64,000 nt of DNA, taken from contig JBDHJS010000011.1 of assembly GCA_039586795.1 (NCBI GenBank), forward strand, positions 32,001 to 96,000, in the 5' to 3' direction. Below are positions 3,001 through 9,000 of this stretch, one piece after another. Position numbers: made by a program. Each line of letters opens with the position of its first letter. Position 1 is the stretch's first letter. Source of the DNA: Gemmatimonadota bacterium. GTDB lineage: Bacteria; Gemmatimonadota; Gemmatimonadetes; Palauibacterales; KS3-K002.

Positions 3001-6000
3001 GCAGGTCCGCTAACGCTGTCTCACGGAAGAATTCGATCATCGGGTCCGAAGCGCTCTTCCAGCCGTCATGCAGCCGGCAGGGCGACTCGTCCGAGCACTC
3101 GCCACGCCCCAACACACACCCCTGACGCTGATCGAGAGGGTCGAACGGCCCGATCACGTCGCCGAGGGAAACGTCGGCGGCCGGCCGCGCCAGCTTGAAA
3201 CCGCCGCGGGGCCCCCGCTCCGACACCAGCACGCCCGCACGAGCCAGGGCGTGAAGGATCTTGGAGAGGTAGTTGGGCGGGAGCCCCACCTCAGCAGCGA
3301 TCTCGGAGGCGCGAACCGGCGCATCTTGTTGGTGTTGCGCGACATAGAGCACCGCACGAAGCGCGTATTGGTTGGTTTTCGAGATCAATTAAGGTCCCGG
3401 TTAGGGCCGCACAGGTTTGACGTGTTTATCATGCTAATATGATCAATTAACTTACGCAACCTTTTCTTCTTTCTCTCTCTAACCCCGATGTACGATGAGA
3501 ATCGGACGTCGAACGTCGATCGCCGAATTGTCCTCGACCGTCGAGCGCCGGCTGTCGGCTGTCCGCTGTCGAAATGTCGCGCCGTCAGGCGCGTCCATAC
3601 ACAGAAACGTGAGATGTACTTTGGGGCGTAAACGGCTCCCGTCTCCAGCCCCCCCACCGTTCTTTCAGCTCGAGCCCTGCGAGTCGCGCCATCAGATCGA
3701 GCTCCGAAGGCCAGGCGTAGCGAATCTTCAGCGGGTAGAACTTGTTCCCCTTTTCCGTCAATACCATGTGCCGGCTGGTCACCGTCTGTTTCACCGGATC
3801 GTGTACCGATGCCTCGATCCGTACCGCATCCGGTTCGTGTGATTCCATCCCGACGCGTTGATGGCGATCGAAACGAGAGAGGTCAGGAACAAATGCGTCC
3901 AGTACGAAGACCCCGTCGGCGCTAAGGTGCTCGGCCACGTTTCGGAAGCAGCGCAGCTGATCTTCCTGTGTGATCAGCGCGAAGATGGTGTTGAACGGTA
4001 TGAAGATGACACGGTAACGACCGTCCACCGGTATGTCCGCGAAATCGCCCATAGTGACAGGGATCTGATCTCCGCCCGGCTTCTCTCGCAGCTTTGCGAC
4101 CATATTATCCGAGCCGTCGATTCCGTGGACCTCGACGCCGCGCTCCTGGAGTGGTAGCGCGATGCGGCCGGTGCCGATCCCGAGTTCAAGGGCAGGGCCC
4201 TTCCCTGCTTTTTCGGCGATGAACTCCACGACGGCTTCTTTCTCGAGGGCGGGGTACCAGCCGTCGTAGACTTCCGCTATATGGTCGCCGTAGGTGGCCG
4301 CATCATAGTTTTCCACGTTCCGTTCCCCCTTACCTGCCGAGAACGAGTACTCGGCTTGCCATGGCCCACATTCTGCACAGTTTCTCTGAACTTAGGCACG
4401 GAGGCAACCACTTGGCCACAACTCTACAAGAGATCCTGGACGCGCGAACACGCCCCGGCGAGCTCTACCAGCTCCTCGACGGCGAGAACAATATCCGTTG
4501 CTTCGCCTGCGGCCTCCGCTGCCTCATCCGCGCCGGCCGCCGCGGCGTCTGCCGGGTCCGCTACAACGACGCCGGCACTCTGCAAGTGCCTTCCGATTAC
4601 GTCGTCGCACTACAGTGCGACCCTATCGAAAAGAAGCCGTTCTATCACGCGCTCCCCGGCTCCGGCGCCCTCTCCTTCGGCATGCTCGGCTGCGATCTCC
4701 ACTGCGACTACTGCCAGAACTGGATCACGTCGCAGGCGTTGCGAGACGATGCAGCAGGCGTCGGACCGCGTGACATCAACTCCGACGAAATCGTCGATTT
4801 AGCGGCGAAACGTGACGCGCGCTTCGTCGTCTCCACGTACAACGAGCCGCTCATCACCAGCGAATGGGCGGCGGAGATTTTCGATAAAGCGAAGGCAAAG
4901 GGTTTCCGCACGGCCTACGTCTCCAACGGCAACGCCACGCCCGAGGCCCTCGACTACCTGCGACCCCGACTCGACGCCTTCAAGATCGATCTCAAGACGA
5001 TGAGCGATCGCAAGTACCGAAAGCTGGGCGGCGTTCTCCAACACATCCTCGATACGGTTCGCGAGGCGCACGCTCGGGGCTTCTGGGTCGAGGTCGTCAC
5101 CCTAGTCGTCCCCGGCTTCAACGATTCCGAGGCCGAGCTCGCGGACGCGGCAGAATTCGTCGCCTCCGTCTCGACCGATATCCCATGGCACGTCATCGCC
5201 TTCCACAAGGACTACCGGATGCAGGACCCGGCGGACACGACGGCCCGCCAACTTGTCCGCGCCGCCGAGATCGGCGCCAAGGCCGGGCTCGACTTCGTCT
5301 ACGCCGGGAATCTCCCGGGCCAGGTCGGTCGCTGGGAACACACCCACTGTCCGCACTGTGACCGCCGGCTCATCGAGCGCCTCGGTCACTCGGTCAGGCA
5401 CGATGAGCTTAGTCCGAGAGACGGTAACTGTCCGGGATGCGGGGTCGGGATACCGGGGATCTGGTCGTAGCCGGGCCTGCTTTTTGCAATTTTTATATAT
5501 ATAGAGTCTTTAGCCCGCGATCGGCCGGGCGCTTGAGCGTTGACGCCCCCTGCTCTGGAGGGAAGCAGCGGGCGCGGCTCGCCGATCGCTGGAGAGTAGT
5601 GTACGCCCGTCAGATGTCCCGTTTTGTCACACGCTGTCCATGAGGAGGCGGAGATGGCAGGCATAGTAGGATACGGGGCCTTCATGCCCCGAAAGCGTAT
5701 CAAGACAGAAGAGATTGCCCGGCAATGGGGCAAGAACCCGGAGTCGATTAAGAGAGGCTTGCTGCTTCAGGAAAAGACGGTCCCCGGCTTCGACGAGGAC
5801 ACGATCACGATCTCCGTGGCGGCGGGTCGTGCCGCTTTGGACCGAGCCGGAATCGATCCACAGAAGGTTGGCGCACTCTACATCGGTTCCGAATCGCATC
5901 CCTACGCGGTGAAGCCGAGCGGCACGGTAGTATCTGAGGCGCTGGGTATCGGGCCGGAAGTTCACATCGCCGACTTCGAGTTCGCGTGCAAGGCGGGCAC

Positions 6001-9000
6001 TGAAGCGATGTTCGTCGCGCTCAGCCTGGTCGAAGCGGGTCAGATGGAGTACGCGATGGGGATCGGCGCCGACACATCGCAAGGCGCGCCTGACGACGCG
6101 CTGGAGTTCTCGGCTTCGGCGGGCGGCGCGGCGTACATCTTCGGCAAAGACAATCTCATCGCCGAAGTGCTCCACACGTACAGCTATACGACCGACACGC
6201 CGGACTTCTGGCGGCGCGAGGGTGAGTTCTACCCTCGGCATGGCGGCCGCTTCACCGGCGAGCCAGCGTACTTCACGCACGTGATGGGCGCTACGAGCGG
6301 CATTCTCGAGAGGACGGGTTATAAGCCCGAGCAGTTCGCTTACGTCGTCTTCCACATGCCGAACGGCAAGTTCCCGCTGTCGGTGGGCAAGAAGCTGGGC
6401 TTCAAGCAAGAGCAGCTGGAGACCGGCTGGATCGTCAACATGATGGGCAACACGTACTCCGGCTCTTCGCCCACCGGCCTGGCCGCGATCCTTGATGTGG
6501 CAAAGCCCGACGATCTGATCCTGATCACATCGTTCGGCTCTGGCGCCGGCAGCGACTCCTTCATCTTGAAGGCCACCGATCACCTGCCGAAGGTTCAGGG
6601 CCTCGCGCCAACCGTTCGCTCGATGCTCGATGGGCCACGCCAGTACGTGACCTACGGCGAGTACGCGAAGCTGCGCGAGAAGATCATCGTCAACGACTAG
6701 AACGCCCGGTAAGACGGCGTAGCCATAGGAGGCAAATATGCGTGAGGTTGCGATCGTTGGAGCCGGGATGACCCGGTTCGGTGAACTCTGGAAACAGAGC
6801 TTACGTGATATGTTCGCCGAGGCGGCGAACGCCGCGCTCAGCGATGCCGGCGCCGATCACATCGATTCGCTCTACGTGGGATGCATGTCCGGCGGTCAGT
6901 TCGTGGGCCAGGAGCACCTGGGCCCGCTGATGGCCGACCAGATGGGAATGACCGGTATCCCGGCTGTGCACGTCGAGTCCGCCTGCGCGTCCGGCGGGAT
7001 CGCGCTGCGCTCGGCGTTCATGGAAGTAGCGTCGGGGATGAGCGATCTGGTGCTGGCGACAGGCATCGAGAAGATGAACGACGGCGCCGACGTGACGAAC
7101 GTGCTGGCTACGGCGGCGGACCAGGAGCTCGAGGTTTATCACGGCGTGACCTTCCCCGGTCTCTACGCCATGATCGCCCGGGCCCACATGACGAAGTACG
7201 GCACGACCGAAGAAGACCTGGCCTGGGTGTCGGTGAAGAACCATAAGCACGGCGCCATGAATGATAAGGCCCAGTTCCCCCTCGAGGTCACGGTCGAGCA
7301 GGTCCTGGCTTCCGCGATGGTGGCCGAGCCGCTTCGGATGCTCCACTGCTCTCCAGTGACCGACGGTGCGGCCGCCGTGCTGCTCTGCCCGCTCGACATG
7401 GCCAAAGAGTTCACCGACAACCCCGTGAAGATCATCGGCAGTGGCCTATCGACCGGTTCGCTGGCCCTGGCGGATCGTGCAGATCCCGCCTTCCTCGACT
7501 CGGTACAAAGTTCGGGCGAACAGGCCTTCAAGATGGCGGGCGTCGGACCGCGTGACGTGCACGTGGCCGAGGTTCACGACTGCTTCTCCATCGCCGAGAT
7601 CTGCTGTATCGAGGCGCTGGGTTTCGTCGACCAGGGCAAGGGTAACAAGGCCGCGCAGGAAGGTTTCACGGCCATCGGCGGCTGCATCCCGGTGAACACC
7701 AGCGGCGGCCTCAAGAGCAAAGGCCACCCGGTGGGCGCCACCGGCATCGCCCAGGCGATCGAAGTCTTCCGCCAGCTGCGCGGCGAAGCCGGCAAGCGCC
7801 AGGTCGAGAACGCCCACATCGGGCTCACTCAGAACATGGGTGGATCGGGCGCCAGCTCCGTCGTCCATATCTTCCAGGGGGTCTGATCATGCCGAGTCCT
7901 AGGTACTGGAGAGAGATACCCAACCGCTATCGCCTGGAGGCGGCGAAGTGCACGGGCTGCGGCAAGGTCGTCTTCCCGGCACGCCGCATCTGCCCCGCCT
8001 GTCGTGGCGAAGCGTTCGAGACGATCAACCTGACCCGCAAGGGCAAGGTCATCACGTCGACGGTGATCCACGTGCCGCCTGACGACTTCCTGATGGAAGC
8101 GCCGTACGCCATGGCGGTCATCGAGACCCCGGAGGGAGCGCGGTTGATGGCGCAGGTCGTTGACTGCGAACCGTCGTCGGTGATGCCAGGGATGGAGGTC
8201 GACCTGGAGTTTCGGCTCATCAGGAAGGAAGGAAACAGCGGGATCCTTTGCTACGGGCACAAAGGCGTGCCCGCCGCAAACGGAAGTTAGCAGGTCAAAC
8301 GGGAGACCGAACGATGCACAAGATCCAGGTGTGGGCTGAGCTCAAAGACGAGCACTTCCACGCGTACGAGTTGGAGGCGAAGCGCCGCGGCGTGACCGTG
8401 GAGGAGCTCGTTCAGCACACGGTCAACTGCCTGCTGCGTGAACTCGAGGCGGAAGAAGAGGAAGGTGGCGGGCCCGATCACCTGATCAGCGCCAGCTGAG
8501 TTGTCCGGCTAGCCAGCCTTCAAGACGCGGAAACGGCCAGTGCCCCGGGGATCGAACCGGGGCACTGGCCGTTCCACATCGATGCCAGGCCCGTCCTCAA
8601 ACGGTGGGCCGTTGGCATGAGGCTAGGTCGAGAAGTCCCACTGAATTCTAAACCGCCACTGGTTTTGGTCTTGTAGGCCCGGGAAATCGAACTTGAAGTA
8701 CGTGATGTCCGTCGTCAGCTTGTTCGAGTGCCCGTTGAAGAACCAGTTGAACGCCAGCGAGAACTCCCGCAGCAGATCGTCCCCAAGATCGATGTCAGGG
8801 TTATAGAACGCGGCCTGGCCGGCGATCTCCAGTGGTTGGGGAAACGACTCAAACAGATAGTGGAAGAAGTAGCCCGCCTGGAAGTACAACCCAATCAACG
8901 TCCGCTCCGTGTTGTTGATCGTGTCATCGACGTTCTTCCAGTGAAACTCCTGCTGCCAGGCAAAGCCCTTGTACTTGAAGGCCGTCTCCTGGTACAGCTG

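Follow-up and report, generated by a model that had tools for sequence, protein, structure and literature searches.

What use would a sediment-type member of the Gemmatimonadota have for an archaeal-type HMG-CoA synthase, kept together with a thiolase and a DUF35 protein, when its genome assembly (97.8% complete, 107 contigs) contains no recognizable HMG-CoA reductase? The initial annotation had placed a three-gene archaeal-type operon at 5654..8290, and same-strand open reading frames of 348, 382, and 133 aa indeed lie there. The locus was studied within a window, i.e., the whole 64-kb stretch of DNA analyzed (C79:32001-96000 in the assembly), and feature coordinates count within this window:

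4361..5470, + strand: AmmeMemoRadiSam radical SAM gene, upstream of the trio (TIGR04337, 254 against a cut-off of 220)
5642..5648, + strand: Shine-Dalgarno-like GAGGAGG in the sequence 5' of the synthase start
5654..6700, + strand: archaeal-type HMG-CoA synthase (HMGS), 348 aa, E80-C112-H234-N266 intact
6738..7886, + strand: archaeal/SCP2-type acetoacetyl-CoA thiolase, 382 aa, with C83, HDCF at 280, and GHP at 329
7889..8290, + strand: DUF35 scaffold protein (zinc ribbon and OB fold), 133 aa, PF12172 and PF01796 above cut-off
8314..8499, + strand: conserved fourth gene of 61 aa, single copy in the genome, possibly a ribbon-helix-helix-type regulator

Judged by its sequence, the trio is most likely an intact archaeal-type complex and a candidate for a working thiolase/HMGS/DUF35 assembly. 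In profile searches the synthase scored 508.3 against TIGR00748 (cut-off 353.35), reproducing the earlier values of 508 and 353, and 514.2 against PRK04262; the catalytic Glu80, Cys112, and His234 reported before were recovered together with N266. The thiolase scored above the cut-off of PRK06064 (525; cut-off 420) and below that of AcCoTHIOL_METTL (521; cut-off 600). The best PDB match for HMGS, thiolase, and DUF35 was in each case the Methanothermococcus complex 6ESQ (chains I, A, and E; 420, 353, and 110 bits), with the matches to PhlA, PhlC, and PhlB far below (181, 119, and 45 bits). Two CxxC motifs are present in the DUF35 protein, AGGAGG precedes the thiolase ATG at 6738, and only 2 nt separate the thiolase stop from the DUF35 start.

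The small fourth gene had a tblastn match at 49 of 124 trio loci, every one in the clade of the window synthase and none linked to a carboxylase. Pfam and NCBIfam profile searches gave no match for its product; in the Atlas the best match (0.97) was an unnamed Gemmatimonadota cluster, and a ribbon-helix-helix protein was no more than a weak lead at rank 21. Homologues of the radical SAM gene lie near the trio solely in loci of the family, and this gene is probably a family-level neighbor outside the pathway. A terminator-like hairpin at 5460-5475 did not exceed the level of shuffled sequences, nor did anything else in the promoter and terminator scan. A few identical pieces of 151-235 nt occurred in two RNA runs, which in the absence of a silent control are no sign of transcription, and no run in the sequencing-run search contained more than half of the words.

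The trio is patchily distributed. The synthase had been counted in 23 of the 31 family genomes, a number that holds only if four partial copies are included (two are cut off by the end of a contig, one lies in two distant pieces, and the last comprises only the first 135 residues); 19 of 31 genomes have it above cut-off. The measured identity was 80-87%, against the 80-86% reported. Such patchiness, the lack of the trio in both genomes of the same genus (86% and 83% complete), and two broken or partial family copies would suit a decaying remnant of a mevalonate pathway, or else an acylase of the PhlABC/MucABC type. We nevertheless regard both as very improbable, as all three genes are under selection, with dN/dS values of 0.05-0.16 against 13 family loci (0.065-0.117 for the synthase), the E-C-H-N tetrad is retained in 125 of 125 full-length synthase matches, and the window thiolase retains HDxF; the acylases lose both (PMC12960953), and the locus thus differs from acylase-type bacterial complexes, as first proposed. 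The reductases of three relatives, which had raised the suspicion of a remnant, do not support it either, for these reductase-like genes are located elsewhere, among DUF3419, cytidylyltransferase, and decarboxylase genes (G014, G015, G021), and the sole synthase-reductase pair (G015, on a 2.1-kb contig) involves a distant synthase of 49% identity.

The complex cannot serve mevalonate synthesis in this genome. HMG-CoA reductase was found by profile search in 3 of the 31 family genomes and not in this one, as claimed before (the control search rang in 5 of 14). A divergent reductase, previously left as a possibility, did not emerge from an unfiltered HMM built from four family reductases (best E 0.71 among 42,244 six-frame ORFs). 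The three GHMP kinases are, in agreement with the earlier assignment, two GalK types and IspE, with no mevalonate kinase among them, and Dxr, IspE, IspG, and IspH of the MEP pathway are above cut-off. It is improbable that HMG-CoA still proceeds to mevalonate or another product by an unrecognized reductase or a gene missing from the fragmented and slightly incomplete assembly: no reductase was found in 28 of the 31 genomes of the family, in 44 of the 50 other genomes with the trio, or in any of five more (one of which repeats a family genome). In favor of such an outlet, Dxs was found neither by motif nor by BLAST with E1 subunits, the only approaches used, so that entry to the MEP pathway is not fully accounted for, and two operon-bearing relatives (G069, G077) have a mevalonate module with a reductase-mevalonate kinase fusion, where forward use of the trio would be natural.

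The gene context in relatives points to leucine/isovalerate metabolism as the fate of HMG-CoA. A methylcrotonyl-CoA carboxylase beta subunit gene immediately follows the trio at 13 related loci, which come from several phyla. Of 80 named loci, 18 included the beta gene within the region retrieved; it is downstream on the same strand in 12 of these and in G083, mostly followed by a LiuC-like hydratase and biotin carboxylase, and the operon-type beta subunit matches Pseudomonas aeruginosa LiuB at 752 bits. In these operons the trio occupies the place where HMG-CoA lyase normally belongs. Among ten operon-type genomes tested, one had a lyase match, two a reductase, and none AtuA; in G083, which is 99% complete, the operon is entire and all three are lacking. 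In a quick synthase tree (11 duplicate or partial loci omitted, no archaeal rows, rooted only on two distant rows, one of them a long branch), the clade of the window synthase (66 rows, support 99) sits among the carboxylase-linked synthases, which places its descent within that group. Because there is no isoprenoid outlet and the genes of relatives lie within leucine-breakdown operons, the trio probably ties acetyl-CoA to the leucine/isovalerate pathway. A lyase match above cut-off does occur in 12 of 50 trio genomes. Eleven of the 50 have matches at 249-299 bits, which exceed the curated cut-off and were counted as lyases but may represent another enzyme; all three such loci scanned are beside a CaiB CoA-transferase and two also beside an isocitrate-dehydrogenase-like gene.

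In the genome studied here the trio stands alone, and none of 24 family loci contains a carboxylase or hydratase. A possible counterpart, with a putative link to the trio, is a module on a separate contig (C57) that encodes a LiuB-like carboxyltransferase, a LiuC-like hydratase, and AtuA. The carboxyltransferase is divergent (best match LiuB at 389 bits, 41% identity to the operon type) and has no biotin carboxylase alongside, the biotin carboxylase and carrier being found only at other loci (C72/C88), and the hydratase is below the cut-offs of its own best families. The genome also has VorB, leucine-dehydrogenase-like, and acyl-CoA dehydrogenase genes, although the one candidate examined was not a clear isovaleryl-CoA dehydrogenase. 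Among genomes of the same class, VorB (2-oxoisovalerate:ferredoxin oxidoreductase) occurs in 12 of 22 with the trio, representing six genera, versus 3 of 264 without it.

HMG-CoA lyase (LiuE) was absent from all 31 family genomes by profile search. The best unfiltered HMM match in this genome (E 9e-7; 10 rows, one a wrong-strand translation) was a homocitrate-synthase-like protein, and two HMGL-like proteins were rejected as lyases, being homocitrate-synthase-like and OadA-like. An acetoacetyl-CoA synthetase candidate was likewise dismissed (best 157; cut-off 521). The alternative isovaleryl-CoA pathway of Myxococcus xanthus includes proteins named AibAB and AibC; AibAB or SCOT, as family-I CoA-transferases, were rejected here with no PF01144 match (the control rang in 6 of 14). 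AtuA itself may cleave HMG-CoA, as suggested by its context and its exclusion with LiuE: AtuA and a high-scoring LiuE were together in 0 of 20 genomes, and AtuA lies within the carboxylase operon of G048. The C57 protein comprises an AtuA domain and its ferredoxin-like partner (PF07287, 487 bits; PF23544, 108 bits) and resembles citramalate lyase 9EVF in fold (TM 0.73), i.e., an acetate-releasing type. Since AtuA is present in 20 of 22 trio-positive genomes of the class, the trio is no simple replacement for AtuA here; in the phylum AtuA occurs in 255 of 301 genomes and the trio in 28, and most C57-type modules are without it.

We tentatively propose, at just short of an even chance, that the trio runs in reverse (HMG-CoA + 2 CoA → 3 acetyl-CoA) and serves in the absence of oxygen as an alternative to AtuA that saves energy. 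Leucine would be converted to 2-oxoisocaproate, and Vor or a dehydrogenase would yield isovaleryl-CoA, from which an acyl-CoA dehydrogenase, a methylcrotonyl-CoA-carboxylase-type enzyme, and the hydratase would form HMG-CoA; the synthase would then pass acetoacetyl-CoA to the thiolase in the shared CoA site, retaining one thioester more than the lyase route. In this genome the trio would be an extra, separately located route next to the AtuA-type cleavage that is usual in the phylum, and it would accompany anaerobic amino-acid metabolism. A rough estimate puts reverse operation at +5 to +19 kJ/mol, for which CoA would have to be well above acetyl-CoA. Published estimates for the thiolase (+25.0 kJ/mol, PMC13126070) and HMG-CoA synthase (-16.9 ± 15.8 kJ/mol, PMC7264872 Table S5) sum to +8 ± 16 kJ/mol net forward, near equilibrium but very uncertain, and the reverse is therefore allowed. 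Counting against it are the missing link between trio and liu genes here, the divergent C57 carboxyltransferase, the want of a clear isovaleryl-CoA dehydrogenase, the frequent presence of AtuA beside the trio, the reductase-mevalonate kinase fusion of G069 and G077, the lyase matches in 12 of 50 trio genomes, and the absence of VorB from 10 of 22. The last step of the known synthase chemistry is moreover a thioester hydrolysis, and for the archaeal complex only the forward direction has been shown (PMC12960953). The literature searched, mostly outside subscription journals, held no relevant report of HMG-CoA synthase reversal, of the synthase taking part in leucine breakdown, or of AtuA acting as an HMG-CoA lyase, and prior mention is possible.

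Forward use toward isovaleryl-CoA is a less likely rival, and would resemble the Myxococcus alternative isovaleryl-CoA pathway with different enzymes. HMG-CoA built from acetyl-CoA would be converted by the hydratase and the carboxyltransferase, acting as a decarboxylase, to methylcrotonyl-CoA and by an acyl-CoA dehydrogenase to isovaleryl-CoA, a primer for iso-fatty acids or, through reductive carboxylation by Vor, for leucine without the usual route. This is the sole direction shown for the synthase family, and reversal of the Liu pathway has precedent in M. xanthus and caprazamycin producers (PMC9636800). The genome lacks IlvC (control 14 of 14) and, among the candidates scanned, LeuA/LeuC above cut-off, and it has FabH, Vor, and a sodium-pumping decarboxylase beta subunit; the carboxyltransferase operon without biotin carboxylase fits as well, and the Vor association is equally compatible. 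However, no AibAB-type protein was found, AtuA, should it prove to be the lyase, would break down the newly formed HMG-CoA in a futile cycle, the C57 module is mostly without the trio across the phylum, and an organism living on peptides would obtain isovaleryl-CoA from leucine. The operon-type relatives carry an ATP-dependent biotin carboxylase, which indicates carboxylation and hence the breakdown direction, and three of five have IlvC and thus no need of a new leucine route.

It is also quite improbable that the forward complex works together with AtuA or a CitE-type lyase on C9 in a ketogenesis-like overflow, in which excess acetyl-CoA would end up as acetate or acetoacetate and CoA would be released. 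Consistent with such overflow are the co-occurrence of AtuA and trio, CitF within 6 of 124 trio loci, and a CitD-CitE fusion with CitF on contig C9; yet it would be wasteful where the products of acetate-CoA-ligase-like and CoA-transferase genes in this genome could simply release acetate, and it leaves the carboxylase operons without any lyase unexplained. The initial view that HMG-CoA has a purpose other than mevalonate stands; it also took HMG-CoA to be made, whereas the comparative evidence slightly favors its consumption.

More broadly, and somewhat below an even chance, we suggest that bacteria degrading leucine can dispose of HMG-CoA by three interchangeable routes: LiuE, a lyase of the AtuA type that releases acetate, and the reversed archaeal-type complex, which would yield three acetyl-CoA and require neither ATP nor a CoA-transferase. 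This family would keep the latter two and, in anoxic sediment, switch to the reversed complex and Vor at times of energy shortage. If true, no earlier physiological reversal of HMG-CoA synthase would be known, reversed citrate synthase being a comparable case, and the channeling site would have a second purpose. For each leucine or isovalerate, anaerobes would then save an additional acetyl-CoA thioester, worth one ATP, which is relevant to near-equilibrium degradation of amino acids and isovalerate; the forward direction would be a novel way to make isovaleryl-CoA and perhaps leucine. HMG-CoA synthase, annotated as a mevalonate marker and treated as one-way, would here mark leucine/isovalerate metabolism across many phyla of uncultured bacteria from sediments and digesters. 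As 1,001 of 1,030 bacterial trio loci have no biosynthetic partners (PMC12960953), a link to leucine would fill the class left open there, and AtuA would gain a testable job.

Among known systems, the complex of Methanothermococcus thermolithotrophicus (PDB 6ESQ, 6ET9), as described in PMC12960953 and PMC11522927, is alike in E-C-H-N, CxS, HDxF, GHx, and a zinc-ribbon DUF35. Here, in contrast, the host is a bacterium with MEP genes and without reductase, relatives have the trio in leucine/isovalerate operons, and in the clade of the window the residue following the catalytic His is Met rather than Gln and a short additional gene makes a fourth. PhlACB (Pseudomonas), MucABC (Streptococcus), and PfACAT/HMGS-DUF35 (PMC12960953) share the three-part architecture in bacteria without a mevalonate role but have lost the synthase tetrad (the acylases HDxF too), whereas the window trio retains the tetrad and HDxF, matches the archaeal complex with far better scores, and has no PKS or NRPS gene nearby. 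A further comparison is with Pseudomonas AtuA (Atu pathway) and with the citramalate lyase CmlAB (PDB 9ERQ, 9EVF); identity is 17%, and HMG-CoA is the putative substrate of the C57 AtuA. M. xanthus likewise uses an HMG-CoA synthase outside mevalonate synthesis, coupled to the Liu hydratase (MvaS, LiuC; PMC9636800), but that synthase is a stand-alone bacterial type and is accompanied by a CoA-transferase-fold decarboxylase, for which this genome has no PF01144 protein. The Liu pathway of Pseudomonas (liuABCDE) and the isovalerate pathway of Desulfococcus multivorans (PMC5109826) share the carboxylase and hydratase leading to HMG-CoA, and the related operons follow the Liu gene order of beta subunit, hydratase, and biotin carboxylase; they differ in that HMG-CoA lyase (LiuE/HmgL) is missing and the trio or AtuA stands in its place.

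The window holds an archaeal-type trio, made up of an acetoacetyl-CoA thiolase, an HMG-CoA synthase and a DUF35 protein, with a short open reading frame behind it:

5654-6700, same strand as the other two trio genes: archaeal-type HMG-CoA synthase (TIGR00748, 508 vs 353)
6738-7886, same strand: archaeal-type thiolase (PRK06064, 525 vs 420)
7889-8290, same strand: DUF35 protein (family profile match)
8314-8499, behind DUF35: 61-aa ORF

As the initial annotation proposed, the catalytic residues of the synthase are intact (E80, C112, H234 and N266 all kept); the thiolase keeps C83, HDCF and GHP, and the DUF35 protein has two CxxC motifs. 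The best PDB match of each of the three is the Methanothermococcus complex 6ESQ, with the acylase subunits (PhlA, PhlC, PhlB) scoring far lower, and by every sequence test the trio belongs to the archaeal-type complex family. The annotation had also allowed for a remnant; that the trio is a remnant or an acylase is now very improbable, given a dN/dS of 0.05-0.16 for all three genes (against 13 family loci) and retention of both the catalytic tetrad and the HDxF motif. The 61-aa ORF, whose product has a conserved TVNC stretch, has a counterpart at the same place in 49 of the 124 trio loci (in some cases two loci of one genome), every one in the clade of the window; our guess is a small regulator, possibly of the ribbon-helix-helix type. 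The nearest named relatives are Gemmatimonadota MAGs. Adjoining the trio at 535-3388 are genes for a Sec-dependent (clade II) nitrous-oxide reductase, a cytochrome c and an Rrf2 regulator, which are common to about a dozen family loci. In two relatives the synthase is broken, split over two distant places in G017 (L131, L132) and shortened in G014 (L133) to 135 residues, through either real decay or assembly error.

HMG-CoA reductase was not found in the window genome (97.8% complete, 107 contigs) by a family search or by an unfiltered HMM, so that its reported absence there is borne out, as is its presence in only 3 of the 31 family genomes (four matches in all). The three GHMP kinases are indeed of the GalK and IspE types; Dxr, IspE, IspG and IspH exceed their cut-offs, and a weak motif search of the genome yielded no Dxs. 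Three of the four family reductase matches sit in an unrelated cluster (DUF3419, cytidylyltransferase, decarboxylase), and the fourth adjoins a second, 49% identical synthase on a 2.1-kb contig. Among the trio genomes tested (50 of the 80 named), 6 have a reductase. Use of HMG-CoA through a hidden reductase thus seems improbable. The reductase-like genes of G014 (L134), G015 (L135) and G021 (L136), whose neighbours encode DUF3419, a cytidylyltransferase, a PLP decarboxylase and GNAT proteins, may reduce another acyl-CoA in a lipid pathway. Elsewhere, a class II HMG-CoA reductase is fused to mevalonate kinase (760-770 aa) in loci L218, L219 and L220; in L218 a type 2 IPP isomerase gene lies upstream.

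When the genes around the trio were clustered, for the named loci (80) together with those of the family, the ones that recurred were a carboxyltransferase, an enoyl-CoA hydratase, biotin carboxylase, a carrier, acyl-CoA dehydrogenases, IcmF and Vor/Kor. The carboxyltransferase scores 752 bits to LiuB, 484 to geranyl-CoA carboxylase and 284 to the best propionyl-type chain, which by sequence identifies it as a true methylcrotonyl-CoA carboxylase beta chain. It occurs in 18 of the 80 named loci (many of them incomplete, and one the source of the query), the LiuC-like hydratase in 13 and biotin carboxylase in 9; together these are the liuB-liuC-liuD set minus liuE. The beta chain lies directly behind the trio in 12 named loci, which belong to records of Aminicenantes, Zixibacteria, Ignavibacteria, Cloacimonadota, Coatesbacteria and Bacillota, and also in G083 from the phylum of the window, a 99% complete genome with the full trio-carboxylase operon in which reductase, lyase and AtuA were not found. 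Ten carboxylase-operon genomes, of unstated completeness, were tested: one has a lyase match elsewhere, none AtuA, and two the reductase-mevalonate kinase fusion. In a tree of 114 synthases built by a quick method, rooted on the two most distant rows and containing no archaeal rows, the clade of the window (66 rows, support 99) falls among the carboxylase-linked synthases. A link of the trio to leucine/isovalerate metabolism, in either direction, is therefore quite probable.

In the window genome the trio stands alone, apart from liu-type genes, and neither carboxylase nor hydratase was found at any of 24 family trio loci. A core cluster of the phylum on another contig (C57; L148:7239-16052) encodes MeaB, B12 mutase subunits, a LiuB-like carboxyltransferase (389 bits to LiuB), AtuA together with a ferredoxin-like partner, and a hydratase resembling LiuC; the carboxyltransferase query is matched in 30 of the 31 family genomes and AtuA in 25 of the 30 others. 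Encoded at other places in the genome are VorB, a leucine/tryptophan-dehydrogenase-like protein, a number of acyl-CoA dehydrogenases, and biotin carboxylase and carrier, these two split (C72 and C88). Two further loci are a benzoyl-CoA reductase cluster for anaerobic aromatic degradation, which also holds genes for dienoyl-CoA hydratase, Had and Oah (C7, L162), and a 2,800-aa ORF joining acyl-CoA dehydrogenase and ETF-like motifs in a single chain (C102:44555-53080).

HMG-CoA lyase was not found in any of the 31 family genomes. Across 301 phylum genomes (at least 90% complete), AtuA occurs in 255, lyase matches in 27 (one below the cut-off) and the synthase in 28; four unpublished, AtuA-positive genomes (G132, G232, G257, G172) are included, and the pattern is independent of them. 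Twenty genomes, from seven genera, have a lyase scoring over 315 bits, a split chosen after the scores were seen, and AtuA is present in none of them, versus 255 of the 281 others; where the two coexist, in six genomes, the lyase matches score 262-288 bits. In G048, AtuA lies between carboxylase beta and hydratase genes. We infer that AtuA is the HMG-CoA-cleaving enzyme of the phylum, yielding acetate and acetoacetyl-CoA, which would fit the absence of acetoacetate-activating enzymes: neither family-I CoA-transferases nor an acetoacetyl-CoA synthetase above cut-off was found in the window genome. ADP in the title of a structure entry hints that the AtuA-type lyase may use ATP. The trio is thus an addition to AtuA here rather than its replacement, since AtuA is carried by 20 of the 22 genomes of the class that have the trio. 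HMG-CoA-lyase-like proteins of 250-300 bits adjoin a CaiB CoA-transferase in L167, L170 and L172, in two of them with an isocitrate-dehydrogenase-like gene; the cluster is possibly one for a citramalyl-CoA-type lyase that was wrongly scored as LiuE.

Vor is found in 12 of 22 trio-positive versus 3 of 264 trio-negative same-class genomes, the Vor-trio genomes being six genera and not independent. In five of the 12 it lies on the trio contig, 15-20 kb away, in a cluster that includes citrate-lyase and aconitase-like genes and, in some cases, acetate-CoA-ligase-like ones. An operon of the window genome (C9) runs, in several Gemmatimonadota, directly into the trio:

L277:1134-12687: HD protein, PrpD-like, fungal-type homoaconitase-like, isocitrate-dehydrogenase-like, CitD-CitE fusion, CitF, acetate-CoA-ligase-like, thiolase

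As to direction, published eQuilibrator values are +25.0 kJ/mol for the thiolase (PMC13126070) and -16.9 +/- 15.8 kJ/mol for the synthase (PMC7264872). Their sum gives a net +8 +/- 16 kJ/mol for HMG-CoA formation from three acetyl-CoA. Thioester values place the reverse reaction at +5 to +19 kJ/mol, turning negative at CoA:acetyl-CoA ratios of about 3-100 with raised HMG-CoA. On either estimate the two coupled steps lie close to equilibrium; in archaea it is the reductase that pulls them forward. Our tentative reading, a little short of an even chance, is that the trio works in reverse, from HMG-CoA and two CoA to three acetyl-CoA: an ATP-driven carboxylase would build up HMG-CoA and so favour reversal of the synthase. 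The CoA site shared within the archaeal complex (PMC11522927) would serve this equally, because thiolysis would take away the acetoacetyl-CoA at once. Forward operation to isovaleryl-CoA is less likely, yet for the window genome it has real support: IlvC is missing, the C57 carboxyltransferase has no biotin carboxylase of its own, a sodium-pump beta subunit is present, Vor could be the carboxylating step, and Myxococcus offers a precedent. Three of five operon-type genomes tested carry IlvC. Use for acetyl-CoA overflow is improbable.

The trio belongs neither to the mevalonate pathway nor to the acylases, nor to the pathway of Myxococcus that gives the precedent for forward operation (PMC9636800). 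According to one study (PMC12960953), HMG-CoA formation needs the tetrad and HDxF, both lost from bacterial acylases, and 1,001 of 1,030 bacterial trio loci lack a biosynthetic partner; PhlA/PhlC/PhlB have lost both features, whereas the window trio keeps them, in line with the annotated distinction from acylase-type complexes. The literature searched held no report of a trio in a leucine/carboxylase context or of a reversed HMG-CoA synthase. The canonical anaerobic isovalerate route, as described in PMC5109826, uses a lyase. The window adds a stand-alone four-gene form, coexistence with AtuA and an association with Vor.
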